64,000 nt of DNA from Pseudomonadota bacterium (GTDB lineage Bacteria > Pseudomonadota > Alphaproteobacteria > Rickettsiales > SXRF01): the NCBI GenBank assembly GCA_028873525.1, contig JAGWIM010000001.1, positions 2,068 to 66,067 of the forward strand, in the 5' to 3' direction. The stretch's first letter is position 1. Each line of letters begins with the position of its first letter. The notes under the pieces were generated by a model. It was not told where the DNA came from and ran no database searches. It worked only from the letters and a program-made list of their open reading frames with translations. A program made the translations under genes and the position numbers. Shown in pieces: positions 5,489 through 64,000 of the stretch.

Positions 5489-5983
5489 ATATACCGATAA
5501 TGTGCGTTCAGGCAATGCTTGTTGCAAAATGTATATCGTGCAACGTTCGCCATGTATCAAAGCTGGAAACCATCTCAAGCCATTAACAAGGCTATATCGA
5601 CGGAACTTACTTATTCATCACTGCCGGTAATATTGATAAGGTAGACTGTTATTATTCAATCATTATCCTGTACCGCCACTGAGGCCGGCGCAACAAAAAT
5701 GCCTCGAGTCCATACCCATGCCGTGAGCAATGATATAATCTTCCGTGGGGTTAAGAGAGAAAAACCGCTTGATTTCCTGTTATTTACGGGTAAAAATGCG
5801 CGCCTATTTCACTTATAGCACGGCATCCGGCAGCGCGGAGGCTGGAGAATTGCCGTTGTGGCGCAACTGTTTAACCCGAAACGCCGCTGACGTTTCATAA
5901 CGAGTAAGCGGCGGTCAGCGGCCAGCGGTCAGGTAATAAACTGGTCGCTGCCAACTGGCCGCCGGCGACTAAAGAAAGCATTT

Positions 5984-7714
5984 ATGGCTCAGGCAGCACA
6001 GGCAATGAATATGGAAGTGGAAGATTTTGGCGCGTTATTCGAGGAATCCGTCAAAACATCGGGCAAGAACGAAGGTTCGGTCATCACGGGCACGGTGATT
6101 TCCGTGGAAAAGGATACCGTCATCATTGATGTCGGCCTGAAATCGGAAGGCCGCGTTCCTCTGCGCGAATTCCAGGTCGGCAATACCACACCGGAACTGC
6201 GCGCCGGCGATGAAGTCGAAGTGTTCCTGGAGCGCATCGAAAACAAGCATGGCGAAGCGGTCTTAAGCCGCGAAAAAGCGCTGCGCGAGGAAGCCTGGAC
6301 AAAGCTGGAAAAAGCCTGCGCCGACGCCACCCGCGTCGAAGGCGTGATTTTTGGCCGCGTCAAGGGCGGCTTTACCGTGGATATTCAGGGCGCCGTGGCG
6401 TTCCTGCCCGGCTCACAGGTGGACATCCGCCCGATCCGCGATGTCGGCCCGCTGATGCACATCCCGCAGCCGTTCCAGATTCTGAAGATGGACCGGAAGC
6501 GCGGCAATATTGTCGTCTCGCGCCGCGCCGTGCTGGAAGAATCGCGCAGCGAACAGCGCGAGCAACTGCTGGGCAAGATAGCCGAGGGGCAGATACTGGA
6601 CGGCATGGTCAAGAATATCACCGATTACGGCGCGTTCATCGATATGGGCGGCATCGACGGGCTGCTGCACGTCACCGATATTTCCTGGCGGCGCATCGCC
6701 CATCCTTCCGAAGTGCTGCATGTCGGCCAGACCGTGCGCGTGATGGTCACCAAGTTCGACCCGGCCACCAAGCGCGTCAGCCTCGGCATCAAGCAGCTCG
6801 AGGAAAACCCGTGGCAGGGCGCCGATGTCAAATACCCGAATGGCGCCAGGCTGCGCGGCAAAATCACCAATATCACCGATTACGGCGCGTTCGTCGAACT
6901 GGAGCCTGGCATCGAAGGGCTGGTGCACGTATCGGAAATCTCGTGGGTCAAGAAGAGCGCACACCCGTCGAAGCTGGTGTCGGTCAGCCAGGAAGTCAAT
7001 GTCGTGGTACTCGACATTGATGCGTCCAAGCACCGCATTTCCCTGGGCATGAAACAGTGCGAGGACAACCCCTGGGCGGCATACGCCGGCAAAGTCCATG
7101 CCGGCGACACCATTGAAGGCGAAATCCGCAACATCACCGATTTCGGCCTGTTCATCGGGCTGGATGGGGATATTGACGGCCTCATCCACCATTCCGATTT
7201 GAGCTGGAACGAACCTGGCGACGTTGCCATCAAGAATTACAAGAAGGGCGACCGCGTCAAGGCGAAAATACTGGCCATTGACGTGGACAAAGAGCGCGTG
7301 TCTCTCGGCGTCAAGCAGTTGGAGAACGACCCGTTCGAGGCCGAATTCGGCGAAATCCAGAAGGGGGCGACCCTCACCTGCACCGTCACCGAAGTGCAGG
7401 GCGACGGTATCAGCGTTAAGGTCAGCGAGCATATTCAGAGCTTTATCAAGAAGTCCGACCTGGCGCGCGACCGGCAGGACCAGCGCCCCGACCGCTTCGC
7501 CGTCGGCGACCGCGTGGACGTGAAAGTCACCGCGGTGGACAAGACGACGCGCAAGGTCGGCGTTTCCATCAAGGCGCTGGAGGCCGACGAGCACAAGAAA
7601 GCCATCGCCGAATACGGCTCAACCGACAGCGGCGCTTCGCTTGGAGACATCCTGGGCGCGGCGCTGGATGAAGCAAAAACAGAAAAAACGACGAAGAAGA
7701 CGAAAAAGAGCTAG
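5984..7714 (+). CDS. rpsA: 30S ribosomal protein S1
   Basis: 576-aa ORF with six S1 repeats (recurrent ITDYGAFV/DGLLHVSEISW blocks). Ends in TAG at 7712-7714. Confidence 0.95.
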   Translation: MAQAAQAMNMEVEDFGALFEESVKTSGKNEGSVITGTVISVEKDTVIIDVGLKSEGRVPLREFQVGNTTPELRAGDEVEVFLERIENKHGEAVLSREKALREEAWTKLEKACADATRVEGVIFGRVKGGFTVDIQGAVAFLPGSQVDIRPIRDVGPLMHIPQPFQILKMDRKRGNIVVSRRAVLEESRSEQREQLLGKIAEGQILDGMVKNITDYGAFIDMGGIDGLLHVTDISWRRIAHPSEVLHVGQTVRVMVTKFDPATKRVSLGIKQLEENPWQGADVKYPNGARLRGKITNITDYGAFVELEPGIEGLVHVSEISWVKKSAHPSKLVSVSQEVNVVVLDIDASKHRISLGMKQCEDNPWAAYAGKVHAGDTIEGEIRNITDFGLFIGLDGDIDGLIHHSDLSWNEPGDVAIKNYKKGDRVKAKILAIDVDKERVSLGVKQLENDPFEAEFGEIQKGATLTCTVTEVQGDGISVKVSEHIQSFIKKSDLARDRQDQRPDRFAVGDRVDVKVTAVDKTTRKVGVSIKALEADEHKKAIAEYGSTDSGASLGDILGAALDEAKTEKTTKKTKKS

Positions 7715-9715: not shown

Positions 9716-10033
9716 ATGCTCCGCTTCTTCAAATTTTTTGCCGCGCTCCTGATTGCCGTTGCCTTTGCCGGGTTCGCCGCTGCCAACCGCGGCATGGTTT
9801 CCCTGCGTTTTTTTCCCCTGCCCTACGCCGTGGATATGCCGCAGTTTCTGCTGGCGCTGCTGTGCTTTGCGCTGGGCGCGGCAGCAGGAAGGCTGGCGCT
9901 GGGACTCAGCCTGCACCGCGCCAGGCGGCTGATCAGGCTGGAGCGGCAGCGTGTGGAAGCGCTGGAGCATGAATTGGCGCTGTTGCGCCAGAAGAAACAG
10001 GCCGCCATGCCCGCGATACCGGCGCAATCATGA
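9716..10033 (+). CDS. LapA-domain (DUF1049-like) inner-membrane protein
   Basis: 105 aa, two TM helices and then a coiled basic tail (RLERQRVEALEHELALLRQ). It occupies the ihfB-lapA-trpF position seen in alphaproteobacteria. Confidence 0.6.
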   Translation: MLRFFKFFAALLIAVAFAGFAAANRGMVSLRFFPLPYAVDMPQFLLALLCFALGAAAGRLALGLSLHRARRLIRLERQRVEALEHELALLRQKKQAAMPAIPAQS

Positions 10034-10719
10034 ACGTGAAAGTAAAAATCTGCGGACTGAATGACGAAGCGGCGGTGCAGGCCGCTATCAAGGCCGGCGC
10101 CGACTTTGCCGGCTTTGTTTTTTATCCCGGTTCGCCGCGCCATATCGCTTTGAAGCGCGCGGCGGAATTGAACGCGCTTCTGCCGCCGCGCATCAAAAGC
10201 GCATCGGTGCTGGTCGATCCCGATGACGCGCTGCTGGCGGAAGTGCGGTCGATACTAAAGCCGGACTATGTGCAATTACATGGCAACGAAACGCCACGGC
10301 GCCTGCGGGAGATAAAAAAAACATTCCCCAACATAAAAATCATTAAGGCGATTTCCGTGCACGGCGGCGACGACGTGGCGCAGGCCGGAATGTTTTATGA
10401 TTGTGCGGATATGCTGATGTTTGATGCGGCTAGCTTTCCCGCAGAGCGCAGCGATGCGTTGGAAAGCTGCCGTCCCCGCGAAGGCGGGGACCCAGTTCTT
10501 CCCGGCGGCAACGGCCTTGCATTCGACTGGGTTCTCCTTGCCAGGCGCGAATTGCCGTTGCCATGGTTCCTTTCCGGCGGGTTGACTCCGGAAAATGTCG
10601 CCGATGCCATCCGCATCAGCGGCGCCGGAATGATTGATGTCTCCTCTGGCGTCGAGCGTGAGCGCGGTGTAAAAGATGCGAGCCTGATTGAAGCGTTTAT
10701 CAAAGCGGCAAAAACATGA
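10030..10719 (+). CDS. trpF: phosphoribosylanthranilate isomerase
   Basis: KICGL...[10 protein letters not shown]...QLHG...FDW...SGGLTPENV...DVSSGVE. Carries an extra segment of about 14 aa encoded by a palindromic element at 10472-10491. Confidence 0.85.
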
Positions 10720-11918
10720 AGATAAGCAACACGCAGCCTGATTCCCACGGCCATTTCGGCACTTACGGCGGCCGGTATGTCGCCGAAACGCTGATGCCGC
10801 TCGTCCTCGAAGTCGAGCGCGCATATAACGCGGCGAAAAACGATCCGGAATTCAAGCGCGGGCTGGATTATTATTTTGAGCATTACATCGGCCGCCCGTC
10901 GCCGCTGTATTTTGCCGAGCGGCTGACGAAACACTGCGGCGGCGCCAGGATTTATTTCAAGCGCGACGAGTTGAACCACACCGGCGCGCATAAAATTAAC
11001 AATTGCATCGGCCAGGGGTTGCTGGCCAGACGCCTCGGCAAAAAGCGCATCATCGCCGAAACCGGCGCCGGGCAGCACGGCGTCGCCACCGCCACGGTCT
11101 GCGCGCTGTTCGGGTTGGAATGCATTATTTATATGGGCGCGAAAGACATCGAACGGCAGGCGCCGAACGTGTTTCGCATGAAGCTGCTCGGCGCAAAGGT
11201 CGTGCCGGTCACGTCCGGCAGCAAGACGCTGAAAGACGCGATGAACGAGGCGTTGCGCGACTGGGTGAGCAACGTCGCCACCACCTATTACCTCATCGGC
11301 ACCGCCGCCGGGCCGCACCCCTATCCGGAAATGGTGCGTGATTTCCAGTCCGCCATTGGCAGGGAAACGCGCGAGCAATTGCATAAGGCCGAGGGCAGGC
11401 TGCCCGATACGCTGGTCGCCTGCATCGGCGGCGGCAGCAACGCCATCGGTCTGTTCCACCCGTTCCTGAGCGAGCCGGAGGTGAAGATGATCGGCGTCGA
11501 GGCGGCAGGGCGCGGGCTGGATTCCGGCCAACATGCGGCGTCAATCGCGCGCGGCCAGCCCGGCGTGCTGCATGGCGCGCGCAGCTATCTGTTGCAGACC
11601 GACGATGGCCAGGTGCAGGACGCGCATTCAATTTCCGCCGGGCTGGATTATCCCGGCATCGGCCCGGAACATTCCTGGCTGCATGACACCGGCCGCGTGG
11701 AGTATGTCTCCGCCACCGATGACGAAGCGCTGGCGGCGTTCCAGACCGTTTCAAAACTGGAGGGAATTATTCCGGCGCTGGAACCGGCGCACGCGCTGGC
11801 GCATGTCTTAAAATTCGCGCCGCCGCTTCCCAAAAATCATTTGCTGGTGGTAAACGTCTGCGGCCGCGGCGATAAGGATATTTTCACCGTGGCCAAAGCG
11901 CTGGGGGTGGAGTTGTGA
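10716..11918 (+). CDS. trpB: tryptophan synthase beta chain
   Basis: 400-aa ORF with the PLP-lysine block (HTGAHKINN) and GGGSNAIG. 4-nt overlap with trpF. Confidence 0.95.
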
Positions 11919-12298
11919 TAAAAGATTTTACAAAATGGCATAAAATAAAAACCCTGCTTGAGGGCAAGCAGAAACTTCCTATCTATCAAACCCGCGAAAT
12001 ATGGTGGTGCAGCCTAGGCGCAAATATCGGTCATGAACAGGATGGAAAAAGCGGATTCTATCTTCGGCCAGTGCTTGTCATACGCAAATTCAATCCGCAT
12101 ATCTTCTTTGGGGTGCCACTTACCACGCGGATAAAAGAAAATCCTTATTATCATCGCATTCACTTCAGAGGAAAAGAACAGTGCGTTATGCTCTCGCAAT
12201 TGCGATTGTGGGACAGCAAACGCCTTTCCCAGAAAATGGGAAAATTGCCGGAAGACCAATTTGAGGAAATAAGAAATGCTTTGAAAGGCTTAATGTAA
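11915..12298 (+). CDS. PemK/MazF-like toxin-fold protein, no obvious antitoxin
   Basis: 127 aa. [33 protein letters not shown] and [14 protein letters not shown] resemble the MazF/PemK SH3-like core. The GTG start overlaps the trpB TGA (GTGA). Clearly AT-richer than trpB and trpA. Confidence 0.6.
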
Positions 12299-12399: not shown

Positions 12400-12567
12400 A
12401 TGAAATTACCACTGCTTACCTATATCCTCTATTTGCTTGGCTTAGGTGTTTTTATGTCGACTATGAAGGAAGGTAACTCGACTGTACAAATGTATGAGAT
12501 GTTGTTTGCTTTCGGCTGTTGGCATACTGGTCGTTTAATCAAAAGGCGTTCTAAAGCAATGAAATAG
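12400..12567 (+). CDS. candidate 55-aa small membrane protein
   Basis: AAGGAG lies 7 nt upstream of the ATG. Translation [21 protein letters not shown]...[17 protein letters not shown] has one hydrophobic helix and a basic tail. AT-rich. Ends 8 nt before the trpA ATG. Confidence 0.3.
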
Positions 12568-12574
12568 CTTAACC

Positions 12575-13375
12575 ATGACCTCCCGCATCGAAAAAACCTT
12601 CGCCAGACTTCGCGCTGAAAAACGCGCGGCGCTGATACCCTTCGTCATGGGTTACGACCCGGATGCGAAAACGTCGGCGGCGGTGCTGGACGCGCTGCCG
12701 GAAGCGGGCGCGGACATCGTTGAAATCGGGATGCCGTTTTCCGATCCCGTAGCCGACGGGCCGGTGATCCAGGCGGCGGGGCTGCGTGCGCTGAAAGCGG
12801 GAGCAACGGTTTCCGGTATCCTGGAACTCGTGCGCGAGTTTCGCAAGAAACATGCAAATACGCCGGTGATTCTGATGGGCTATTTCAATCCGGTCTATCG
12901 CTATGGCTGCGAAAGATTCTGCCAAGATGCAGTAGCGGCTGGGGCGGACGGCATCATTCTGGTGGATTTGCCGCCGGAAGAAGAACAGGAAATGCGGCCG
13001 CATCTTGAGGCGACGGGACTCAAGCTCATCCGCCTCGTCGCTCCAACCAGCGGCGACGACCGCTTGCCGCTGCTGGCCAAATCCGCCAGCGGATTTATCT
13101 ATTATATTTCCATCACCGGCATCACCGGCGCGCAAGCAGCCGATGCGCTGGAACTAAAAACGAAGGTTGACCATCTGCGGAAATTCACCGCGCTGCCGGT
13201 GGCCGTCGGCTTCGGTATCAAAACACCGCGGCAGGCGGCGCAGGCGGCCAGTTGCGCCGATGCGGTGGTGGTGGGCAGCGCGCTGGTGGATGCCGTCGCG
13301 CATCAGAAAGACCGCGCCCACGCCGTCAAGGCGGCCAGCGCTTTTGTCAGGGAACTGGCGGAAGCGCTTGGATAA
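12575..13375 (+). CDS. trpA: tryptophan synthase alpha chain
   Basis: 266-aa ORF with [21 protein letters not shown] and GFGI blocks. Confidence 0.9.
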
Positions 13376-13386
13376 TTCTCAGGCGA

Positions 13387-15940
<2,554 letters not shown>

Positions 15941-17144
15941 GGATCCATTCTCCACTCTCAAGAACTGCGCTTTGCCTTGCATTCCTTCGAATAAAAGCGG
16001 GTCGGTTCCGGTCATCCAGACTTGCGCTCCAATCTGGCAGATTTCCTCGAACAACTCAAGCCTTCTTGTGGCGTCCAAATGGGCGGCGACCTCATCGAGT
16101 AACAGTACCGGAACAACGCCGTGCCATTTCGCCCCCGACTGCGCCTGTGCCAGCACGATGGAGAGCAAAAGCGCCTTCTGTTCGCCGGTGGAACACCGCT
16201 CGGCCGGCATGGATTTTTCGATATGTGTGACGCAGAGGGAGCTTCGGTGCGCGCCGTCCAGCGCGCGACCGGCGGCGGCGTCCCGCCCCCTGTGTTCGCG
16301 GAGCTTTTTCTTGAACCATTCCTCAATCGTAACTGCGGTTTCTCCGCCGGCCAGCCCGTTTTCGATGGCGCCATGAATCTCCAGTTGCGCTTTGGGAAAT
16401 GAGAGCGTCGAGGCGGCAATCGTATGGTTGATATGGTCGCAGGCAAGCAGCCGCGCGCTGGCGATGGCCGCCCCGGTTTCGGCCATGGTGGCTTCCAGCG
16501 CTTCGAGCCAGGCGGCATCGGCCCGATTATCCGCCAGCAATTTATTGCGCTCGCGCATGGCGAAGTCATATTCATTGATGCGCGAGGCATGTTCGGCGTC
16601 GAAACTATAGACCAGCCGGTCGAAGAATCTCCGCCCGGCGGATGTTCCATCGTTGAATAACTGCTCCATCTGCGGCGTCAGCCATATCATCGCCAGATGC
16701 CGCGCCAGTTCAGCTTGCGACCGCGCCGTTTTGCCGTCCATCTTGACGATGCGCTTATCGGTTTCCGCTTCCGGGTCGCGGCCGGTGCCGATCTGTACGC
16801 TACCCTGCATTCCAGTGATATTGGCGGAGACAGCCCAAACGTCCTCAACCGGCGCATCCCCCTTTCCCACGGGGAGGAGGTCGGGGTGAGGGCGGTGATT
16901 CAATTCTGATACTCTCGCCCTTCTTAAGCCCCTCCCCGGCGTCAGCAGCGAAATCGCCTCCAAAATATTGGTTTTCCCGGCGCCGTTACGCCCTGTCAGC
17001 ACCACCGGCGCAGGCGAGATTTCGATATGGGCAGAGGCATAGTTGCGGAAGCAATGGAGAGAGAGGGAGGAGATGGATAACACGTCCCGTGGCGCGCTTT
17101 CCGCCTTCGCAAAAAGCGTCAGCACAGGATCCTGAGACTGCACG

Positions 17145-17179
17145 GGATCCTGCGTAGCCGCTTCGCGGCTCGCAGGATT
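17145..17179. repeat. 35-nt REP-like hairpin (GGATCCTGCG..GCTTCGC..CGCAGGATT family)
   Basis: ggatcctgcgtagccgcttcgcggctcgcaggatt. Lies inside the annotated 5' end of recF, next to the dnaN stop. Confidence 0.6.
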
Positions 17180-17184
17180 ATGGC

Positions 17185-18357
17185 TCATACCCTCATCGGC
17201 ATGATGACGTAGAGCGCGCCGACATCGGCGGTGTCGCGGACGATGGCGGGCGCGGCGCCGTCCGACAGCAGAAACTGCGCGGTGTCGCCCTCGATATTGG
17301 TCATCATATCGAGCAGGTAGCGCGAGTTGAAGCCGATCTCGATCAGCGTCGAGGCATAGGTGACGTCGATTTCCTCCGACGCCGTGCCCTGCTCGGCGCT
17401 GGAGGCCGACAGCGTCAGCTTGCCGTTTTCAATATGAAACTTGATGGCGCGCGATTTCTCCGATGAAATCACCGACACGCGGTCCACCGCTTCGGTGAAG
17501 GATTTGCGGTCGACTTCGAGAATCTTGTCGTTGCCGGAGGGGATGACGCGCTCGTAATCCGGGAAGTTGCCGTCGATGAGCTTCGACACCAGCACGGCAT
17601 TGCCGCAGACGAAGCGGATTTTCGCTTCCGACAGCGACACGCCGACATCGCCGCCGCTTTCCTCGAGCAGTTTTTTCAGCTCGTAAATCGCCTTGCGCGG
17701 CACGATGACGCCGGGCATCCCATCCGCCCCGGCGGGTGTCGCGGTTTCGATGCGCGCCAGCCGGTGGCCGTCGGTGGCGACGGCGCGCAGCGCCTTGGCT
17801 TTGCCGCTGCCGGAGAGGTGCAGGTAAATGCCATTCAGGTAATACCGCGTTTCCTCGGTCGAGATGGCGAAGCTCGGTTTTTCGATGAGCGATTTGCAGT
17901 CGGCGGCTTTCAGCGTGAAGTTAAAGGCCAGATCGCCGTCGGCCATCACCGGAAACTCATCCACCGGCAGGCAGGCCAGCGAGAAGCGCGAATGGCCGCT
18001 CTTGATGGTCACCTTGCTGTCGCCGGAGGAAAGCTCAATCTGCGCGCCTTCGGGGAGCTTGCGCACGATGTCATAAAACGTGTGCGCGGGAACGGTGGTG
18101 GCGCCGTTCTTGCTCACCGTCGCCGGAATTTTTTCGGCGATGGAAATGTCCATGTCGGTGGCGGTGAGGCTGACGCCGTCGCCCCTGGCCTCGATTTTCA
18201 CGTTGGAGAGCACGGCGATGGTGCCGCGCCGTTCGACGACGGATTGCACGTGCCCCAGCGCCTTCAGCAGATGCGCGCGCTCGATGGTGAATTTCATGGC
18301 GGAATCGCCGGCTGCGGCTTCCGGTGCTTTGCTGCGGGTGGCTGTGGCTGTGGTCAT
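17185..18357 (-). CDS. dnaN: DNA polymerase III subunit beta
   Basis: MKFTIERAHLLKAL...PMRV is typical of the sliding clamp. The conserved start is the ATG at 18297. The tracked ORF adds 20 N-terminal residues. Confidence 0.9.
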   Translation of the reverse strand: MTTATATRSKAPEAAAGDSAMKFTIERAHLLKALGHVQSVVERRGTIAVLSNVKIEARGDGVSLTATDMDISIAEKIPATVSKNGATTVPAHTFYDIVRKLPEGAQIELSSGDSKVTIKSGHSRFSLACLPVDEFPVMADGDLAFNFTLKAADCKSLIEKPSFAISTEETRYYLNGIYLHLSGSGKAKALRAVATDGHRLARIETATPAGADGMPGVIVPRKAIYELKKLLEESGGDVGVSLSEAKIRFVCGNAVLVSKLIDGNFPDYERVIPSGNDKILEVDRKSFTEAVDRVSVISSEKSRAIKFHIENGKLTLSASSAEQGTASEEIDVTYASTLIEIGFNSRYLLDMMTNIEGDTAQFLLSDGAAPAIVRDTADVGALYVIMPMRV

Positions 18358-18424
18358 AATTTTCTCCCTGTATTCTTTAATTAATCATTCCTTGGGAAAA
18401 AGGCAATGGATTTAAGAGATGGGA

Positions 18425-19027
18425 TTATATTTCCCTGGCGTGCGGCTTGTTGCCGCGATTATCTAAAATTGCATTTTCACTCATGGCGACTTCAATGGGC
18501 AAAAACATTGTGTCAAGCGCCTTGACCAAGGTAGCAATATTCCTCTTTCCTGACTCCCCTTCGGTGAGCGTATCAAGACGTAGCTGGCGTAACTCATCTG
18601 CCACAAATATGGCTGATATTCCGCTCACGAATAACATGGTGGGTGGCGCAACGTCTTTCAAGGCATCCATAATTCCCTCCGTTTTTGCTTTATTATCACG
18701 CATTCTGTTTCCCAGCCTCGCTGTTACGCCCCTAAAGCCAACGACGGTTGCTGCTAACGCAGCCGCGTTTATAAGCCAGTAGCGGCGATTAATCCTGGAT
18801 TTTCCGAAAACTTCAGCCAATGATTCTTTTTCGTTGTTATCCAGTCCTATGGTGGGGGAGCCATTCATAATGGCCCTGCGTATTTTATCCCAGAACTTCT
18901 CGAATGCATCAAAGCCATGTTTTTCAATGTGAATAGTGATAAAGCGCTTGCCAGAACTATCAGGCATGTTCCGCACATATTCGCAGAATATGTCCTGATT
19001 ACGCTTTTCTTCTTCGCCGGCGCTCAC
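18425..19027 (-). CDS. hypothetical membrane-associated protein inserted between dnaA and dnaN
   Basis: 200-aa ORF, AT-richer than its flanks. The GTG start overlaps the dnaA TGA (GTGA); an alternative ATG is at 18967. Two hydrophobic segments ([30 protein letters not shown]). No motif recognised. Confidence 0.5.
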
Positions 19028-20433
19028 CCCTGCAACATCCGGCTTAAAAGCTCAATATCCTTGGCGAACTCGTTGTCGGCGCCCATCAGCTCGTCGACGC
19101 GCTTCACCGCGTGCATGACGGTGGTGTGGTCCTTGCCGCCGAACCGCCGGCCGATTTCCGGCAGACTCTTGGAGGTGAATTTCTTGGACAGGTACATGGC
19201 GACCTGCCTTGGCCGCGCCACCACGCGCGAGCGCCGCGCCGAGTGCATGTCCGACACCTTGATGTTATAATGCTCGGCGGTGCGTTTCTGGATGTCCTCA
19301 ATGGTGAGTCTCCGGTCGTTTGCGCGCAATAAATCATGCAGCACTTCCTGCGTGGTTTCCAGCGTCACCGGGCGGCCGACCAGCGTTGCGTGCGCCACGA
19401 CGCGGTTCAGCGCGCCTTCCAGCTCGCGCACGTTGGAGGTGATGCGGTGCGCCAGGAATTCCGCCACCTTTTGTGGAATCGTCACGCCTTTCATCCGGTC
19501 AATCTTCGATTGCAAAATACCAAGGCGCAGCTCAAATGTCGTGGCGTGGATGTCGGCCACCAGCCCCCAGCCGAGCCGCGAGCGCACGCGCTCTTCCATG
19601 CCCTCCAAATCGGAGGGACTGCGGTCGCCGGAGAGGATCAACTGCTTGTTCTGGTCGACCAGCGCGTTAAAGGTGTGGAAAAATTCCTCCTGCGTGGCGT
19701 CCTTGCCGCTGATGAACTGCACGTCGTCAATCATCAGCACATCCACCGAGCGGAAATATTCCTTGAAGGCCAGCGCTTCCTTGAAGCGCAGCGCCTTGAT
19801 GAACTGATACATGAATTTTTCCGCCGAGAGATAGAGCACGCGGCGCTGCGGGTTGCTGCGGCGGATGTGCCAGGCGATGGCGTGCATCAGGTGGGTTTTG
19901 CCGAGGCCGACGCCGCCGTAAAGAAACAGCGGATTGCAGCCGGACACCACTTCCGTCGCCTCGGCGACGCGACGCGCCGCGGCATGCGCCAGTTCATTAG
20001 GCTTGCCGACGACGAAATTCTCGAACGTGTAACGCGGGTCAAGCGCCGCCCCTATCTGCACATCGGCCTCCGCAGTAATCGGCGTCTGCCAGTTTCCGGC
20101 GGTGATGACGTTCGACGCGGCAGCCGGCTCAGCGGGGGTAACGGCGGATAGTGCCGGCACGATAATATCAATCGTGTAGTCCGCCGCTTCCGGCTCCTGC
20201 TGCCAGAGGGCGCGAATGTCATCGCCATAATGCGAGGTGATCCATTCGCGCATGAAGCGCGTCGGCACGGAAAGCAGCACGCGACCGTCCTTGCTTCCGG
20301 CGTAACGCAGCGGCTTCAGCCAACTCTTGAACACGGCATCGCCGTACAGGGCGCCCAGTTTGCCGCTGACCCGCTCCCATACGAGCGCCAGCGTATCCTT
20401 GACTTTTTCCTGCCCTGCCGTTGCTAATGCCAT
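19024..20433 (-). CDS. dnaA: chromosomal replication initiator protein DnaA
   Basis: 469-aa ORF with AAA+ Walker A ([13 protein letters not shown]), Walker B (LMIDDVQF) and the domain IV block ([11 protein letters not shown]). Confidence 0.95.
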
Positions 20434-22661: not shown

Positions 22662-22766
22662 CCCTCCCCCCTTGTGGGGGAGGGTTAGGGAGGGGGGGCG
22701 TCTTAGAAAAAGATTTTTCATTTAGATACCCCTTCCCCCTGCCCCCCTCCCACCAGGGGAGGGGGA
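22662..22766. repeat. pair of C/G-homopolymer hairpins (CCCTCCCCC..GGGGGAGGG type) flanking an AT-rich spacer
   Basis: ccctccccc-cttgt-gggggaggg at 22662-22684 and cccctccc-acca-ggggaggg near 22745-22766, directly upstream of the ubiB ATG. Related hairpins occur at 51082-51102 and about 51176-51199. Confidence 0.5.
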
Positions 22767-26145: not shown

Positions 26146-26260
26146 ATATCGATCCTGTGAGCCGCGCAGGCGGTTGCACAGTATCTGAAAATATATTTAT
26201 TAACCAAGACCCTGCGTAACCGCTACCGCGGTTCGCAGGATTAAAAAAGGAGTAAAAACC

Positions 26261-33583: not shown

Positions 33584-34402
33584 TTACCCATGCTCCGCCA
33601 CCGCTGCCGGTGCGGTGACCATATGCAGGCCTATCTCCTGCAGCGCAAATTGCCCGCGTTCGCTTAAGTCAGCGATGAACTTGAACTGCTCGCGCGCTTC
33701 CATGGGGTAGGCTTTGAGCTTGTAATAAAGCCCGAACGGCAAGTGCTTCATGACGACGACGATGGGGCGGTCGAGATGGAGATAGACACTCGTCATCGCC
33801 ACATCGAACAAGGCCTGGCGGGCAAGTGTATTATCGTGATCGGGGTGGACATAAAAGATGGCAAAGCAGAGTAAATCATGCGCGCCGCTGGTGGCGTTGG
33901 AGAGCTGGCCGTGCCAGAGCGTGCTGTGCGGAACGGTGATGTCGTTGGCATCGATGGTGCGGATCAGCACCGTGCGCATACCCAGATGCACGACCTCGCC
34001 ATATGTTTCGCCGATCTGTATCCAGTCACCGACGCGGTAAGGCCGCTCGAACATGAAGATGATTCCGGCGATCAGGCAACTGATGTAATCCTTGATGGCG
34101 AAACCAATGGCCAGTGCCGAAGCGCCGACCAGCGCCAGCACGTTTTCGCGCGTCGGCGTGATGACGATGGGCACAATCATCGATAGCGCTATGAGAATAA
34201 TGACAAGCCGCAGAAACGGAATCCACGGCAGCGCGTAAAACCGCTCATCGGGGCGGAACAGGCCGGTGATGAACGGCACCAGGCGGCGGATAATCTCGTA
34301 GGCGATCCATGCGCCGGCGATAATCGACAGAATATGGATCGGCTCGTAGCCTTCCCATTCGCGCAACATGTCTATCCAATGTTCGGTCATGATGTCCTCC
34401 AT
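33584..34402 (-). CDS. mechanosensitive ion channel (MscS family) protein
   Basis: 272 aa, three N-terminal TM helices, then FERPYRVGDWIQIGETYGEVVHLGMRTVLIRT, typical of the MscS beta-domain. Confidence 0.8.
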   Translation of the reverse strand: MEDIMTEHWIDMLREWEGYEPIHILSIIAGAWIAYEIIRRLVPFITGLFRPDERFYALPWIPFLRLVIILIALSMIVPIVITPTRENVLALVGASALAIGFAIKDYISCLIAGIIFMFERPYRVGDWIQIGETYGEVVHLGMRTVLIRTIDANDITVPHSTLWHGQLSNATSGAHDLLCFAIFYVHPDHDNTLARQALFDVAMTSVYLHLDRPIVVVMKHLPFGLYYKLKAYPMEAREQFKFIADLSERGQFALQEIGLHMVTAPAAVAEHG

Positions 34403-34432
34403 AAATCCTGTAATTACCGAAGATGCTGCACG

Positions 34433-34467
34433 GGATCCTGCGCTGGCGCTTCGCGTCCCGCAGGATT
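34433..34467. repeat. 35-nt REP-like hairpin (same family as 17145-17179)
   Basis: ggatcctgcgctggcgcttcgcgtcccgcaggatt, intergenic between the 260-aa ORF and the MscS gene. Confidence 0.6.
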
Positions 34468-34472
34468 AATGC

Positions 34473-35255
34473 TCAGGCAACCCAAAATTCAACTTTCTCC
34501 AATTGCCTGCGGATACCGGCATAATGCTTCGGGCTAACGCGCCATGCGCCGTCTTCCTCGAAGGCCAGTTGCCGCCCGCGCAGATCGGAGAGCGTCTTGA
34601 ATATCTGCGTGGCGCGGAACGGCAGAAGCTGCGGCAATACGGAAACCACCATACCGTCATGCACCAGCAACGTGTGCAGAACGTACGCCTGCAGGCGTGA
34701 ATCCCTGGCGCGCGGAGTAATGTCGGGAGTGCCGGCGGATTCGGCGCAATGCGCCATCAGCGGCGCGGCGGTGACGGCATCGGGGCAGAGCGAATCCATC
34801 TGTACCGCTTGCCGCAGATATTTCCATGCCCAGGCATCGCAGCCGATGACCAGCCTGCACGGCTTCGCCCACACGGTTTCCACCAAAGCGCGCGCCAATC
34901 GGATTCCCCGGAAATGGCGCAGAAAACAGCGCTCCAAAGAGGGAATAACAAAAATAACATCGCCGGGATTTTGTAATTCTGGCCAAAGCTCGGCGGTTCC
35001 ATTGAGCAAAGTCTCAACAGGCGGCGGCTCGAGCACCCGTGCGCCGCGCTCTTTCGCCCAGCCATGCAGCAACTGCCCGGCGTTGCCGAACAATCCGGCC
35101 ACCGCCTGCGGGAATCCGGCATATGGCGCTTCACCACCCAGGCCGCACATATAGCCATCGAACGCCCGCACCGCCAGCTTCCAGTCGACAGGCGATAACC
35201 GTTCGGACGGCGGATATTGCGCCAGCGGTTTGAACGTCCATGATGATTCGATCAT
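34473..35255 (-). CDS. hypothetical protein
   Basis: 260-aa ORF with host-like composition, preceded by an AT-rich segment (35256-35375). No motif recognised. Confidence 0.45.
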   Translation of the reverse strand: MIESSWTFKPLAQYPPSERLSPVDWKLAVRAFDGYMCGLGGEAPYAGFPQAVAGLFGNAGQLLHGWAKERGARVLEPPPVETLLNGTAELWPELQNPGDVIFVIPSLERCFLRHFRGIRLARALVETVWAKPCRLVIGCDAWAWKYLRQAVQMDSLCPDAVTAAPLMAHCAESAGTPDITPRARDSRLQAYVLHTLLVHDGMVVSVLPQLLPFRATQIFKTLSDLRGRQLAFEEDGAWRVSPKHYAGIRRQLEKVEFWVA

Positions 35256-40069: not shown

Positions 40070-40072
40070 GTT

Positions 40073-40097
40073 GTCATCCCCGCGAAGGCGGGGATCC
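40073..40097. repeat. half-element of the GTCATCCCCGCGAAGGCGGGGATCC palindromic family
   Basis: gtcatccccgcgaaggcggggatcc between serS and surE. Confidence 0.6.
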
Positions 40098-40115
40098 ATG
40101 TCCCAGCAAACACAA

Positions 40116-43535: not shown

Positions 43536-44268
43536 GGGTCAAGACTACTTGAGCGGGTTATTACGGAGTAATGATAACAGTATTTTATAGATGTTGTCAT
43601 TACGATGATTATAGCGGAACTCGGTTTCTTTAAGATGCAGGTAGAAGGTTGATTTCGCCATACCCCTGAACTTTGCAAGTCGTACTTTTGCGATACCCCA
43701 GAAGCCTTCAATGCCATTGACATGAGTGTGCCCTCTGGCGAATTCATCCTTGCCGTGATCGACCCGGAAGTGGCCGTAGCCAATGTCTACCAAGCCGTTA
43801 TATCCTCTCCAGCCGTCCGAGTTGACAACGGACTCCGCCGCCACCTTTCCTCGGATAATGGCTTGCAGCGTTGATTTGGAGCAATCCGGCACGATCTCGG
43901 TGTACACATGGCCGTTGCGTTCGTAGATGCCAAACACCGTGGTTTTGCCGTAAGCGCCTCGGCCACGCTTGCCCTTCACCCGGCGAGCACCGAACCATGA
44001 TTCGTCCACTTCCACCGTGCCGCTGAATGGAAATTGTTCCTCGCAATAGGCGGCAATGTGCTCACGAATGCCTTGCAGATACCGATTCACCGTGTTGCGA
44101 TTCAGCCCCGTCAGATAGGCAATTTGCGTTGCCATCAGGTCAGCCGAAAACAGCTTAACCAACATCCGAAATTGCTTCTCTGAAATGCGGGAACGAAATT
44201 TATACTTGCTCTTCTGCGCCATCACTAGCTTGTAGCATACTTCCTATATGCTCAAGTAGTCTTGACCC
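43536..44268 (-). mobile_element. IS1595-family insertion sequence (733 bp), apparently intact
   Basis: Perfect 19-bp terminal inverted repeats GGGTCAAGACTACTTGAGC (43536-43554 and 44250-44268). 8-bp direct target duplication ACATTTAA (43528-43535 and 44269-44276). Single transposase ORF. Confidence 0.85.
43545..44225 (-). CDS. IS1595-family (ISXO2-like) DDE transposase
   Basis: 226 aa. VEVDESWFGARRVKGKRGRGAYGKTTVFGIYERNGHVYTEIVPDCS...DGWRGYNGL...HVNGIEGFWGIAKVRLAKFRG is characteristic. An ATG is at 44222. Confidence 0.85.
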   Translation of the reverse strand: MMAQKSKYKFRSRISEKQFRMLVKLFSADLMATQIAYLTGLNRNTVNRYLQGIREHIAAYCEEQFPFSGTVEVDESWFGARRVKGKRGRGAYGKTTVFGIYERNGHVYTEIVPDCSKSTLQAIIRGKVAAESVVNSDGWRGYNGLVDIGYGHFRVDHGKDEFARGHTHVNGIEGFWGIAKVRLAKFRGMAKSTFYLHLKETEFRYNHRNDNIYKILLSLLRNNPLK

Positions 44269-44569: not shown

Positions 44570-44705
44570 GTCATCCCCGCGCAGGCGGGGATCCAGTAGC
44601 GCCGCGCGTGTCCGCCGAAGCCTTGGCGAAGGCGGATCTGCGGCGCGGAAGAATCTATACCACGCCTACGGCGCTTTGCTGGATTCCCGCCTTCGCGGGA
44701 ATGAC
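44570..44705. repeat. 136-bp MITE-like element with hairpin termini
   Basis: gtcatccccgcgcaggcggggatccag ... ctggattcccgccttcgcgggaatgac. Fills the tatA-tatB spacer. Same ends as 50685-50789. Confidence 0.65.
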
Positions 44706-49256: not shown

Positions 49257-49283
49257 ATCCCCGCACCTGTTGCGGGGTCTGGT
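49257..49283. repeat. 27-nt hairpin element ATCCCCGCACCTGTTGCGGGGTCTGGT
   Basis: Lies immediately 5' of the argS start codon. A 26/27-identical copy is at 63906-63932, inside acs. Confidence 0.6.
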
Positions 49284-49354
49284 CTTCAGAAACCGCTCAT
49301 CCCGCCAATATATCATGTAATCCTTAAAACCGGCCCCCGCAATGAATGCGGGGC

Positions 49355-50684: not shown

Positions 50685-50789
50685 GTCATTCCCGCGCAGG
50701 CGGGAATCCAGCAAAGCGCCATGGGCGCGGTATAAACCCTTCTGCGCCGCAGACGCGGCGCACTGGATTCCCGCTTTCGCGGGGATGAC
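50685..50789. repeat. 105-bp MITE-like element (same family as 44570-44705)
   Basis: gtcattcccgcgcaggcgggaatccag ... cactggattcccgctttcgcggggatgac. Partial copies flank it at 50664-50684 and 50800-50808. Confidence 0.65.
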
Positions 50790-51245
50790 AAAATAAATGG
50801 GAATGACAAAATTCCCCCTTCCCGACCACATTTTCCTATGAGACTCTTGGCCTACACCCGGGTTACTGCGCGGCGGAATTTACGGGGCGTTGCCCCGCAA
50901 AATCACCACTATGATTTTGCGCCAATGCCATGAGAAGGTGTGCCAAGGCCCTCGCTCACCGTATCGTCCGCGTTTTTATTCCAAAACGCTTGGCCGCAAG
51001 GGGCGCTGAAGATCCCCCGACCCTCACCCCCGTCGCAAATCCAGGGGTTTCTGCCGTGAGCCGGCTCACACTACGTAATTTCCCTCTCCCATCGGGAGAG
51101 GGTGTCCACCGAAGCCCGAAAGGCGAAGGCGGGCGGGCGAGGGCATCGCCGGTGGCGCACCCCCCCTCGCCCTTACCCCTCTCCCGGCGGGAGAGAGGAA
51201 CAAACCCGCTTGTTTTTCCGGCGGTTTTAACCCATATTATAAGAC

Positions 51246-55723: not shown

Positions 55724-56656
55724 ATGACCACCCCCCTCCTCTCCATCGTCGTTCCCTGCTATAACGAGGAAGGAAGTATCGCCGCGCTTGCAGCACGGCT
55801 GGATGCAGTCCTGGGTGATTACAAAACGCAAGGTACGGAAATCCTCCTGGTCGATGACGGCTCGGCTGACGGCACATGGCCGGCCATTGAAAAGCTCTGT
55901 GCGAAAGATGCCGGCGTTATCGGCGTCCGGCTGTCGCGCAATTTCGGGCACCAGATGGCGCTGGCCTGCGGGCTGGATCATGCGCGCGGGCGGCGCGTGC
56001 TGGTCATCGACGCCGATCTGCAGGACCCGCCGGAACTGCTCCCCGCCATGATCAAAAAAATGGACGAAGGATTTGATGTCGTTTATGGCAAGCGCCGGTC
56101 GCGGCAAGGCGAAGGCGGTTTTAAGAAAGCCTCGGCCTGGGTCTATTACCGGCTGCTGGGGCGCCTGAGCGAGGTGCCGATTCCGCCGGAGGCCGGCGAT
56201 TTCCGGCTGATGAGCCGCCGCGCGGTGGATGCGCTCATCGCGCTGCCGGAGCGCATCCGCTTCACGCGCGGGCTGGTGGCGTGGCTCGGCTTCCGTCAGG
56301 CCGCCGTCGAATATACGCGGGAAGCGCGCCATGCCGGAGAGACGCATTACCCGCTGCGCGCCATGCTGCGTTTCGCGAATGAGGGCATCACCAGTTTCTC
56401 AACGCGCCCGCTGCAACTGGCGACATGGCTGGGGCTGCTCATGATGATGGTCAGCATCGGCCTGCTGGGTTATGTTTTCCTGTCGTGGCTGCTGTTCGAT
56501 ACGGTGCGCGGCTGGACCAGCCTGGCCGCCATTTTCCTGCTGTCGCAGGCGGCGCAATGGCTGATGCTGGGCATCATCGGCAATTACCTCGCCGTCATGT
56601 TCCGTGAAGTAAAAGCGCGGCCGCTGTACCTGATAGACCGGACGCTCAACCGATGA
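55724..56656 (+). CDS. polyprenyl-phosphate glycosyltransferase (GtrB/ArnC-like GT2)
   Basis: 310 aa from the ATG at 55724. LSIVVPCYNEEGSI, LVDDGSADGT, RNFGHQ, IDADLQDPPE, plus two C-terminal TM helices. Confidence 0.8.
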   Translation: MTTPLLSIVVPCYNEEGSIAALAARLDAVLGDYKTQGTEILLVDDGSADGTWPAIEKLCAKDAGVIGVRLSRNFGHQMALACGLDHARGRRVLVIDADLQDPPELLPAMIKKMDEGFDVVYGKRRSRQGEGGFKKASAWVYYRLLGRLSEVPIPPEAGDFRLMSRRAVDALIALPERIRFTRGLVAWLGFRQAAVEYTREARHAGETHYPLRAMLRFANEGITSFSTRPLQLATWLGLLMMMVSIGLLGYVFLSWLLFDTVRGWTSLAAIFLLSQAAQWLMLGIIGNYLAVMFREVKARPLYLIDRTLNR

Positions 56657-57555
56657 CTATTTCCATCGCCGCCTGGAATGTGAATTCGGTCAAGGCGCGG
56701 ATTGTGCATATGCTGGACTGGCTGAAACAGGACGCGCCGGACATCGCGCTGCTGCAGGAAACCAAATGCGTTGATGACGCTTTTCCGAAAATGGAAATCG
56801 AAGACCTGGGTTACAACCTCGCGCTGTTCGGCGAAAAAACCTATAACGGCGTCGCCATCCTCTCCAAATTTCCGCTGGAGGATATAAGGCGCGGCCTGCC
56901 GGGAGATAGCGGCGATGCCCAGGCACGGTATATTGAAGCAGTCGTCAGCCTGCCACGGGTAACGGGCGCCGGGTGCCGGGTGTCAGATAAAAAAGGCATT
57001 CCTTCCGTCACCCCGCAGGCACTCCGCGTCGCCTCCGTCTATGTGCCCAACGGGCAGGATGCGGCGTCGGAAAAATTTCAGTACAAGCTGCGCTTTTTAG
57101 ACCGCCTGCGCGCGCATATGCAAACGCTGCTCGCCTATGACGAAATGCTGGTCATCGGCGGCGACTATAATATCGCCCCCGAAAATGCCGACGTGCACGA
57201 CCCGAAAGCCTGGGAAGGCAGCGTGCTGACGCATGAGGAAGTGCGGCGCAGGTTTCGCGGGATTTTGCATCTGGGGATGTACGATGCCGGCGTGGTGCCG
57301 GGCGCCGGGTGCCGGGTGTCAGATAAAAAAGCGGTTTCCAGTCCGGCACCTCTCTACACCTGGTGGGACTACCGCAATAATGCGTTCGCGCGCGATGATG
57401 GCCTGCGCATCGACCACCTGCTGCTGTCGTCGCAGGCGGCAGACGCGCTCAGCGGCTGGCGCGTTGAAAAAAAACTCCGCGGGCTGGACAAGGCGTCGGA
57501 TCACGCGCCGGTGGTTATAATCCTGCGCGAGCGAAGCGAGGCACAGGATCTTTAG
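56653..57555 (+). CDS. xth: exodeoxyribonuclease III
   Basis: AWNVNS...LQETK...YNGVAILS...GGDYNI...YTWWDYR...RIDHLL...SDHAPV. About 40 aa longer than usual because of two in-frame repeat insertions. Confidence 0.85.
   Translation: MTISIAAWNVNSVKARIVHMLDWLKQDAPDIALLQETKCVDDAFPKMEIEDLGYNLALFGEKTYNGVAILSKFPLEDIRRGLPGDSGDAQARYIEAVVSLPRVTGAGCRVSDKKGIPSVTPQALRVASVYVPNGQDAASEKFQYKLRFLDRLRAHMQTLLAYDEMLVIGGDYNIAPENADVHDPKAWEGSVLTHEEVRRRFRGILHLGMYDAGVVPGAGCRVSDKKAVSSPAPLYTWWDYRNNAFARDDGLRIDHLLLSSQAADALSGWRVEKKLRGLDKASDHAPVVIILRERSEAQDL
56965..56995 (+). repeat. 31-nt repeat copy 1 inside xth
   Basis: ggcgccgggtgccgggtgtcagataaaaaag, in frame, encoding GAGCRVSDKK. Confidence 0.9.
57301..57331 (+). repeat. 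31-nt repeat copy 2 inside xth
   Basis: Identical 31-mer, 336 nt downstream of copy 1 and in the same codon phase. Confidence 0.9.
57519..57550. repeat. REP-like hairpin (inverted orientation) forming the xth 3' end
   Basis: aatcctgcgcgagcgaagcgaggcacaggatc encodes ...ILRERSEAQDL directly before the stop. Confidence 0.55.
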
Positions 57556-62847: not shown

Positions 62848-64000
62848 TTATCCTTTCCTCCCCTTCACCAGTTCCTCCACAATCTCCGGGTTGGTGAGGG
62901 TGGAGGTGTCGCCCAGCTTGTCGAATTCGCCCTCGGCGATTTTACGCAGAATGCGGCGCATGATTTTGCCTGATCGTGTCTTGGGCAGCGCCGGCGTGAA
63001 ATGAATGTGGTCGGGCGTGGCGATCGGGCTGATGGTTTTTCGCACATGCTGCACCAGTTCGCCACGCAGCGCGTCGCTGTGCTCAATGCCGGCATTCAGC
63101 GTGACATAGGCGTAAATCCCCTGCCCCTTGAGGTCGTGCGGGAAGCCGACCACCGCCGCCTCCGCCACCTGCGGATGCGCCGCCAGCGCGCTTTCGATTT
63201 CCGCCGTGCCGAGCCGGTGGCCGGACACGTTGATGACATCGTCCACCCGGCCGGTAATCCAGTAGTAGCCGTCCTTGTCGCGCCGCGCGCCGTCGCCGGT
63301 GAAATAGAGGCCACTGAATTGCGAGAAATAAGTCTGCTCGAAACGCGCGTGGTCGCCGTAAATCGTGCGCGCCTGCCCCGGCCAGGAATCGGAGATGGCA
63401 AGCATCCCCTCGCACGCGCCTTTCAGCATTTTTCCCGACGGATCGACGACGGCGGGTTTCACGCCGAAAAACGGCAGCGTCGCCGAGCCGGGTTTCAGCG
63501 CCGTCGCACCCGGCAGCGGCGTTATCATATGGCCGCCGGTTTCGGTCTGCCACCAGGTGTCGATCACCGGGCAGCGCCCGTCGCCGACGACGCGCCAGTA
63601 CCACAGCCACGCTTCGGGGTTAATCGGCTCGCCGACGCTGGCCAGCACACGCAGGGACGCGCGCGAATGTTGCTTCACCGGCGCATCGCCCTCGCGCATC
63701 AGCGCGCGGATGGCGGTGGGCGCGGTATAGAAAATCGTCACCTTGTGCCGGTCGACAATCTGCCAGAACCGACCCCAGTCGGGATAGTTCGGCACGCCCT
63801 CGTACATCACGCTGGTCGCGCCGTTTAAGAGCGGCCCGTAAACGATATAGGTATGCCCGGTCACCCAGCCGACATCGGCGGTGCACCAGAAAATATCCCC
63901 TTCCAATCCCCGCACTTGTTGCGGGGTCTGGTGCGCTTCGGGAACCGTACCACGCAATGCGCCCGCTTGCACGGGCTTATGCGGAGATGGTGGCGCATGG
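62848..64000 (-). CDS. acs: acetyl-CoA synthetase (C-terminal part; the ORF runs off the window)
   Basis: [49 protein letters not shown]. The frame stays open to position 64000. Confidence 0.9.
63906..63932. repeat. 27-nt hairpin element inside the acs coding sequence
   Basis: atccccgcacttgttgcggggtctggt, 26/27 identical to 49257-49283. Read in frame as HQTPQQVRG. Confidence 0.6.

Follow-up and report, generated by a model that had tools for sequence, protein, structure and literature searches.

A 64,000-nucleotide stretch of the genome of an uncultured alphaproteobacterium (contig JAGWIM010000001.1 of assembly GCA_028873525.1, positions 2,068 to 66,067; hereafter, the window) carries within its trpF gene, encoding phosphoribosylanthranilate isomerase, an in-frame palindromic insertion that is absent from related genes. 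The hairpin in the 3′ half of this insertion, together with its CCAG tail, is, judged by its sequence, a unit of the CGTC-1 family of repetitive extragenic palindromes (REPs), which comprises the dRS3/NTS repeats and the Ssn-related motifs (SRMs). With a probability of about 80%, a repeat of this class entered the segment coding for the β6-α6 loop of the enzyme, where it is now a translated passenger. Both the phenomenon seen in trpF and the repeat family have already been described; what is new here is the recurrent occupation of one active-site loop by multiple families of palindromes, together with the existence of in-frame nuclease-bearing versions in relatives.

The insertion in trpF

The trpF gene is intact and contains a perfect hairpin at positions 10472-10491, GTCCCCGC-GAAG-GCGGGGAC (sequence stretch gaaagctgccGTCCCCGCGAAGGCGGGGACccagtt), whose 8-bp stem and 4-nt loop are translated in the frame of the gene, the codons at 10471-10491 giving R-P-R-E-G-G-D, i.e. 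(R148)PREGGD154, just as the initial annotation had placed it. Together with a second hairpin lying upstream, it forms a region of 70 nt (10428-10497) that folds as a pair of adjacent hairpins (z = -5.4 under DNA parameters, -5.5 under RNA parameters), a fold equalled by none of 200 shuffles. Direct reading of the sequence indicates that the palindrome is G+C-rich and stop-free across all six frames. A transcriptional terminator was rejected as a reading of the trpF hairpin, since a terminator scan lists no site at 10472-10500.

The extent of the insertion was measured against the TrpF homologues found by a database search (6665 sequences), where the loop, taken as the stretch from the catalytic Asp to the GG motif, was scored in 118 of the best 120 (two were unscorable). 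Over the aligned core, the closest homologues share 64-78% identity with the window protein, and their length is 211-217 aa, versus 229 aa in the window; in the alignment of the three nearest relatives this region runs MLMFDA-KPPANM-LPGGN, with a loop reading FDAKPPANMLPGG and no extra residues. At the DNA level, the difference in length to insert-free relatives is exactly 51 nt, or 17 residues (E139-P155), which corrects an earlier estimate of about 14; owing to divergence of the flanks, its limits can be given only approximately. Among the best 120 homologues, the loop spans 7-11 aa in 111 and 17-162 aa in seven, the window protein included. A genome scan for trpF among the alphaproteobacterial representatives of GTDB, which returned no relative closer than 60% identity, gave loops of 8-12 aa in 79 of 80 loci (one unscorable) and an insert in none. 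An ancestral loop conserved across the order, which had been named as the finding that would speak against a repeat, was rejected on these orthologue alignments, as the extra residues are absent from the relatives. The trpF insert is a palindromic repeat lying in frame in a conserved gene whose orthologues lack it.

Identity of the repeat

The kinship formerly proposed between the trpF hairpin and an intergenic element near position 40073 is borne out by the exact recurrence of the hairpin 16-mer CCCCGCGAAGGCGGGG at 40078-40093 and, once the flanks are included, by the 24 of 27 positions at which the trpF copy equals that solo unit (GTCATCCCCGCGAAGGCGGGGATCCAG), the non-palindromic CCAG tail among them. 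With up to two mismatches, the 16-nt core has five matches in the window versus 0.15 expected, a number reached in 0 of 100 shuffles. A looser pattern, (T)GTCAT-YCCCGC-N4-GCGGGR-ATCCAG, describes a family with asymmetric flanks, which occurs as a solo unit 5′ of surE, as inverted dimers of ~105-135 bp that fold as long hairpins, and, at the recF 3′ end, as a unit beside which lies a degenerate second copy (~15855-15900) (Table 1).

REPs of the CGTC class were described as palindromes with a stem of 8-9 bp, a loop of 4-5 nt, an unpaired head CGTC (often TGTC or CCTC) and a tail CCA, occurring chiefly in Alphaproteobacteria and chiefly as inverted dimers, with no associated transposase or RAYT (Di Nocera et al. 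2013, PMC3733652). In the same study, the CGTC-1 repeats of Neisseria correspond to dRS3, and the CGTC-1 and CGTC-4 repeats of Rickettsia conorii to the Rickettsia palindromic elements (RPEs) RPE-6 and RPE-4, respectively; REPs lie mostly at transcribed places, copies wholly inside open reading frames (ORFs), some of them in frame, are recorded, ~10% lie at the ends of ORFs, and many copies that seem N-terminal are truly extragenic (PMC3733652). More recently, dRS3 has been extended to the 28-nt NTS, CGTCATTCCCGCGMAVGCGGGAATCYRG, and similar hairpins, the so-called Ssn-related motifs, have been found to flank small GIY-YIG (ssn) genes across bacteria (Chenal et al. 2025, PMC11893778). The SsnA nuclease cuts the single-stranded hairpin; binding depends critically on the C after the palindrome, and cleavage on the three bases upstream. 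NTS repeats modulate transformation in Neisseria (PMC11893778).

The trpF unit shares with CGTC-1 the G+C-rich stem of 8 bp, a 4-nt loop (GAAG, which fits GMAV) and the unpaired CCA-type tail (CCAG, 10492-10495), a tail shared by the copies in the window and by each of the 122 metagenome copies analysed. As in CGTC-1/dRS3/NTS, the family takes its orientation from non-palindromic flanks, is mainly alphaproteobacterial, and shows intra-ORF copies; within 64 kb it is multi-copy and mostly intergenic (the five core matches, two inverted dimers and a solo copy), and the intergenic copies of the window fit the published CGTC/NTS description closely. Under a strict definition of the NTS (at most one mismatch to the 28-nt sequence), the trpF copy, TGCCGTCCCCGCGAAGGCGGGGACCCAG, falls outside, with 6 mismatches (22/28 matches).

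The likeness to the RPEs of Rickettsia, initially put forward as one of behaviour, exceeds analogy, since R. conorii CGTC-1 has been classed as RPE-6, with in-frame intragenic copies (PMC3733652); this relationship follows the published classification. In both cases a palindromic repeat lies in a housekeeping gene, in frame, and is translated while the protein fold survives. RPE-1-type elements, as summarised in later papers, are ~100-150 bp long and specify their own conserved peptide (Ogata et al. 2000, via PMC10969869 and PMC3733652), whereas trpF carries a 28-nt unit within a 51-nt insertion; moreover, the host of RPEs is a reduced Rickettsia genome, and that of the window an uncultured alphaproteobacterium of 58% G+C with intact biosynthesis. 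REPs of the GTAG type and REPINs are likewise short multi-copy extragenic palindromes, often in inverted dimers and occasionally intragenic, but the trpF unit has no GTAG at either end and the family no adjacent RAYT. No IS200/IS605-like tyrosine transposase was found among the window ORFs scanned with Pfam, and the sole transposase of the window, of the IS1595 family, is unrelated to the repeats.

A metagenome scan for the variant present in trpF, GTCCCCGC-N4-GCGGGGACCCAG, gave at least 120 stretches. The 122 copies of this GT-type analysed show a head consensus CCG[CT]TC and loops GAAA, GAAG, GCAA or GCAG, usually with an inverted partner CTGGATTCCCGC..GCGGGAATGAGCGG. The idea that the trpF stem arose from the AT-type copies of the window by compensatory A:T to G:C change was dropped, as GT...AC is a widespread sub-variant in metagenomes. 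In one contig (L128), two inverted copies of the exact trpF variant bracket a 108-aa GIY-YIG ORF (PF01541, E = 1e-15), which matches the published repeat-ssn-repeat architecture. TC directly precedes the stem in 108 of the 122 copies, and CC in trpF. The trpF unit keeps the stem, the loop class, the tail and the C after the stem, and differs in having C for T at the second base before the stem; Ssn might still bind it, but it would probably be a poor cleavage substrate, so that the trpF copy may be an immobilised relic.

Table 1. Coordinates in the window of trpF, its insertion and the copies of the CGTC-type family
Feature	Position	Strand	Description
trpF	10030..10719	+	Phosphoribosylanthranilate isomerase, 229 aa, intact; Pfam PRAI, E = 4e-38
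Upstream hairpin	10428..10471	+	Arms AGCTTTCCCGCA (10432-10443) and TGCG-TT-GGAAAGCT (10455-10468), extended by GGC/GCC
Net in-frame insertion	10444..10494	+	51 nt, 17 aa (E139-P155); protein and DNA alignments versus insert-free relatives
Solo CGTC-1/NTS-type REP unit in trpF	10468..10495	+	Degenerate head TGCC, stem GTCCCCGC/GCGGGGAC, loop GAAG, tail CCAG
Copy at the recF end	15914..15940	-	GTCGTTCCCGCGCAGGCGGGAATCCGG; supplies the last recF codons (VPAQAGIR, then Y and stop)
Solo copy in the serS-surE spacer	40073..40099	+	GTCATCCCCGCGAAGGCGGGGATCCAT; extragenic, just 5′ of the surE start at 40070 (surE on the minus strand)
Inverted dimer between tatA and tatB	44570..44705		GTCAT..ATCCAG ... 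CTGGAT..ATGAC, ~135 bp
Second inverted dimer of the family	50685..50789		3′ of a dGTPase-like gene

Position in the TrpF protein

The insert is located in the β6-α6 loop, between the catalytic Asp132 and P158-G159-G160 of the PGGNG motif. In the alignment to the TrpF of Thermotoga maritima (1LBM), C8 corresponds to Cys7 and G159 to Gly133, hence D132 to Asp126. Cys7 and Asp126 are the catalytic base and acid of the T. maritima enzyme, and their equivalence to C8 and D132 places the insert at the catalytic side of the barrel. With 119 aligned sequences as input, AlphaFold2 gave a model that has a mean predicted local distance difference test score (pLDDT) of 91.4, with a confident barrel and a drop to 51-77 at residues ~131-170 only; its best match in the PDB is T. 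maritima TrpF (1NSJ), with a template modelling score of 0.91 (target-normalised) and a root-mean-square deviation of 2.0 Å. All 30 invariant columns of the 119-sequence alignment are retained in the window protein.

Judging from this model and the retained residues, the trpF gene looks functional and the 17 extra residues probably form a disordered, floppy loop. The suggestion that the enzyme tolerates an extra loop agrees with the preserved frame, the intact modelled barrel and the disorder predicted for the insert, which is most likely a tolerated passenger rather than a functional module, leaving the enzyme core untouched.

Recurrent insertions in the same loop

Seven insert-bearing TrpFs, the window protein among them, were found in the best 120, always with the insert between (K)PP and LPGG, and no internal insertion of at least 5 aa occurs elsewhere in the 119 aligned TrpFs. 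Every insert-bearing TrpF has insert-free sequences as its nearest neighbours, with the other insert-bearing ones more distant, which indicates independent events. At the DNA level, all seven loop inserts are strong palindromes of differing families. Among the metagenome relatives (designated here by L numbers), the insert of L007 is CCCTCTCCC..GGGAGAGGG, a net gain of 21 nt versus its empty relative L210 (87% identity); that of L004 is a nested CCCTCTCCC/GGGTGAGGGCC element (7060-7197); that of L005, GTCATCCTTCG..CGAAGGATGAC; that of L006, CCTCCCCCC..GGGGGGAGG (5773-5898), with ~87 nt more than the empty relative L211 (82% identity); and that of L009, ATCCTGTG..CACAGGAT. In L004, L005 and L007, the palindrome family of the loop insert is also present in nearby intergenic DNA. 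The junctions of the L007/L210 pair are consistent with a clean insertion of a 21-nt hairpin, and no target duplication was seen in this pair or in L006/L211. Even without an insert, the site forms a weak inverted repeat, GCCGCC...GGCGGC, which folds weakly.

In the case of L008 (trpF at 811-1911 of JGI contig Ga0683290_0209657), the loop holds in frame a complete DUF559/Vsr-like endonuclease domain (PF04480, E = 2e-40), flanked by CCCTCTCCC..GGGAGAGGG and GGGTGAGGGCC/GGCCCTCACCC hairpins, i.e. ends of the L004 type. The L004 insert has the same terminal architecture without the ORF, the two TrpFs being only 62% identical. A second DUF559 domain, 66% identical to that of L008, lies in frame in the cytidylate kinase gene (cmk) of L006 (1-753), just before VLDGRDIGT; it is flanked by CCTCCCCCC..GGGGGGAGG hairpins, and an ORF-less form of this hairpin family fills the trpF loop of the contig. 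Taken by their sequences, the cmk and trpF elements of L006 look like an autonomous and non-autonomous pair. A literature search for DUF559 and palindromic repeats together gave nothing relevant.

As a separate observation, pairs of CCCTCYCCC..GGGRGAGGG, members of the family occupying the trpF loop of L004, L007 and L008, are also found in intergenic DNA of the window (22662-22765 and 51082-51197).

Origin of the insertion and alternative explanations

The most likely pathway would start with a non-autonomous hairpin repeat of the CGTC-1/SRM type, which would be mobilised and enter trpF. Given that units of the CGTC class form the inverted ends of GIY-YIG cassettes or ORF-less dimers of ~105-135 bp, and that Ssn recognises single-stranded DNA hairpins, spreading through single-stranded hairpin intermediates with the help of an Ssn-type nuclease seems most probable. 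The copy in trpF would have survived thanks to a length that is a multiple of three, to a palindrome free of stops in every frame and to a loop tolerant of length, to persist as a passenger.

Several observations weigh against this pathway. The head of the trpF unit is TGCC (10468-10471) instead of CGTC, TGTC or CCTC, and its stem starts with GT...AC, where CGTC-1 repeats have A-T pairs at stem positions 1-2; it is the sole GT-type copy of the window, the others being AT-type (ATYCCCGC). No GIY-YIG/ssn gene was found in the 64 kb with a crude regular-expression search of six-frame ORFs and inspection of the ORFs around the dimers, nor any GIY-YIG domain in Pfam scans of ~40 window ORFs. Neither a target-site duplication nor a clean junction is readable in the window copy, for which the nearest empty site is 78% identical at the protein level. 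Finally, the accompanying upstream hairpin, which likewise sets the trpF unit apart from CGTC-1/NTS, has no second copy detectable with blastn-short in the window and ~210 loci (only chance 11-12-mers matched), so that no repeat family can be named for half of the insert. The net insertion begins with 25 nt that make up the loop and right arm of this hairpin, whose left arm lies in the codons ASFPA, aligned with the native AKPPA of relatives. Three origins of this upstream half can be envisaged: the inserted DNA may have included sequence complementary to the flank of the target; this flank may have been remodelled after the insertion; or a two-hairpin unit of 69 nt may have replaced 18 native nucleotides, which the intragenic REPs often found as dimers or groups encoding 20-30 aa (PMC3733652) fit loosely.

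A different reading of the loop inserts is that the β6-α6 segment of trpF is a preferred site for hairpin elements, where nuclease-bearing elements and their ORF-less derivatives home. This targeting is possible, though rather improbable. It would explain why a single 5-residue segment received at least seven inserts, independent of one another and drawn from no fewer than five palindrome families, as well as the common ends of the nuclease-bearing L008 insert and its ORF-less L004 counterpart in such distant TrpFs. The weak fold of the empty sites lies beside the highly conserved PGGNG codons, and published REPs offer parallels, some being located inside small palindromes (e.g. CCGSSCC(n)GGSSCGG) and others at a roughly equal site of recB in two Xanthomonas species (PMC3733652). 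However, a selective filter, by which only this loop tolerates changes in length, gives the same pattern; the inverted repeat is a near-automatic consequence of Pro-Pro and Gly-Gly codons; target duplications were seen at no junction examined; and the window insert belongs to a different family than those linked to DUF559. The resemblance to homing endonuclease elements and inteins lies in the repeated occupation of one site beside strongly conserved active-site codons in a housekeeping gene and in the in-frame nuclease ORFs (L008, and cmk of L006), whereas no Hint or splicing domain or intron was seen, the insert stays in the protein, and that of the window has no ORF. A stronger and somewhat more doubtful version would make the Asp-PGGNG segment a true homing site in a clade of uncultured alphaproteobacteria, used by 'splicing-free' homing elements with nuclease-bearing autonomous forms and ORF-less hairpin derivatives, the latter entering in frame beside conserved active-site codons and being translated through. 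In such a case, the nuclease forms would be DUF559/Vsr-like in L008 and L006 and GIY-YIG/Ssn for the window family, the window insert would be a decayed relic, and the elements would persist by choosing loops where the added peptide is harmless.

It is unlikely that the hairpins of trpF are retained for a role at the nucleic-acid level, either as a stabiliser or processing site of the trp mRNA or as a site of Ssn cleavage or recombination modulating uptake or repair of the locus. Both hairpins are highly stable and show perfect or near-perfect pairing, and such roles would suit the transcribed location of most REPs (PMC3733652) and the effect of NTS on Neisseria transformation (PMC11893778), but close relatives manage without them, they are not terminator-like, and the inserts of relatives are unrelated in sequence, contrary to a specific conserved function. 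Still less credible is a local palindrome, produced by template switching or by correction of a quasi-palindrome, or an adaptive loop specific to this lineage, with no mobile repeat involved. Fold-back copying of the flank could account for an upstream hairpin whose left arm sits on native-loop codons and whose right arm is found nowhere else. The 3′ hairpin, on the contrary, matches a family present in the window and in the metagenome stretches, as do its loop class and 4-nt tail, for which chance or local origin cannot account, and the residues are absent from all relatives.

The finding has some consequences. The in-frame colonisation of housekeeping genes by CGTC/NTS-type repeats is not confined to Rickettsia and extends to G+C-rich metagenomic alphaproteobacteria of the free-living type. 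For annotation, loop 'insertions' rich in P, R, G, E and D in metagenome proteins can be repeat-derived, instead of adaptive features or phylogenetic characters. The TrpF loop system, with the nuclease ORFs in the L008 loop and in cmk, offers a testable case for the movement and site choice of CGTC-type repeats, for which no transposase is known. Moreover, the TrpF β6-α6 loop appears to be naturally permissive for inserts of up to ~160 residues, which could be of interest to enzyme engineers.

Other genes and neighbouring features

The initial annotation had listed in-frame copies of the element in trpF, recF, xth, surE and acs. The list stands for trpF and, as a tail, for recF, the only two of these coding sequences with the CGTC-type family inside, whereas the surE copy is extragenic and the xth and acs repeats belong to other families. 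In the case of recF (15908-17188, minus strand), the end of the protein, ...VVPAQAGIRY followed by the stop, is encoded by the family copy and forms a repeat-derived C-terminal tail. In surE, translation truly starts at MRILVTNDDG, and the copy precedes this start, sharing a reading frame only with a spurious ATG further upstream; the SurE Pfam match begins at residue 13 of the extended ORF. The xth gene (56653-57555, plus strand) contains two identical in-frame 33-mers, GGGCGCCGGGTGCCGGGTGTCAGATAAAAAAG, at 56963-56995 and 57299-57331, encoding the peptide GAGCRVSDKK; both are insertions relative to exonuclease III structures of the PDB and unrelated to the trpF family, and neither the window nor the loci retrieved showed a further copy of the 33-mer. 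In acs (62848 to the window end, minus strand), the hairpin CCCCGCAACAAGTGCGGGG at 63908-63926 is read as TPQQVRG, after 25 residues that are not Acs-like, the whole foreign-looking stretch amounting to ~30 residues and being truncated by the window end; its palindrome family, CCCCGCA-N5-TGCGGGG, is also present at 49259-49277 and 49335-49353, between argS and the dGTPase-like gene. In any case, in-frame colonisation in the window is real and multiple.

The gene order around trpF, rpsA-sppA-ihf-lapA-trpF-trpB-trpA, is common to the metagenome relatives (L001-L007). A gene for a PemK/MazF-type toxin (PF02452, E = 3e-15; 11915-12298, plus strand) lies between trpB and trpA, overlapping the trpB stop, and L005 carries at the equivalent place a pemK-like gene (12551-12934) that is 64% identical to the window copy. 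Three relatives show antisense ORFs between trpF and trpB, all on the minus strand: L005 (10710-11237, 175 aa), L006 (6107-6631, 174 aa) and L008 (1904-2218, 104 aa, cut by the contig end), with ~30% identity and no Pfam match. There seems to be a build-up of small inserted genes in the trp operon of the clade of the window.

The IS1595-family transposase gene (PF12762, E = 4e-29; 43545-44225, minus strand) is located between tatB and tatC, so that, with the CGTC-type dimer between tatA and tatB, the tat operon is interrupted twice. The presence of a dnaA-dnaN-recF-gyrB cluster at 13387-20433 (minus strand) suggests that the window probably adjoins the chromosomal replication origin. Intergenic hairpins of the form ATCCTGCG..CGCAGGAT occur in the recF-dnaN gap (17146-17181), 5′ of groEL (26206-26241), and between a mechanosensitive-channel gene (33584-34402) and an unannotated ORF (34473-35255), at 34432-34467.

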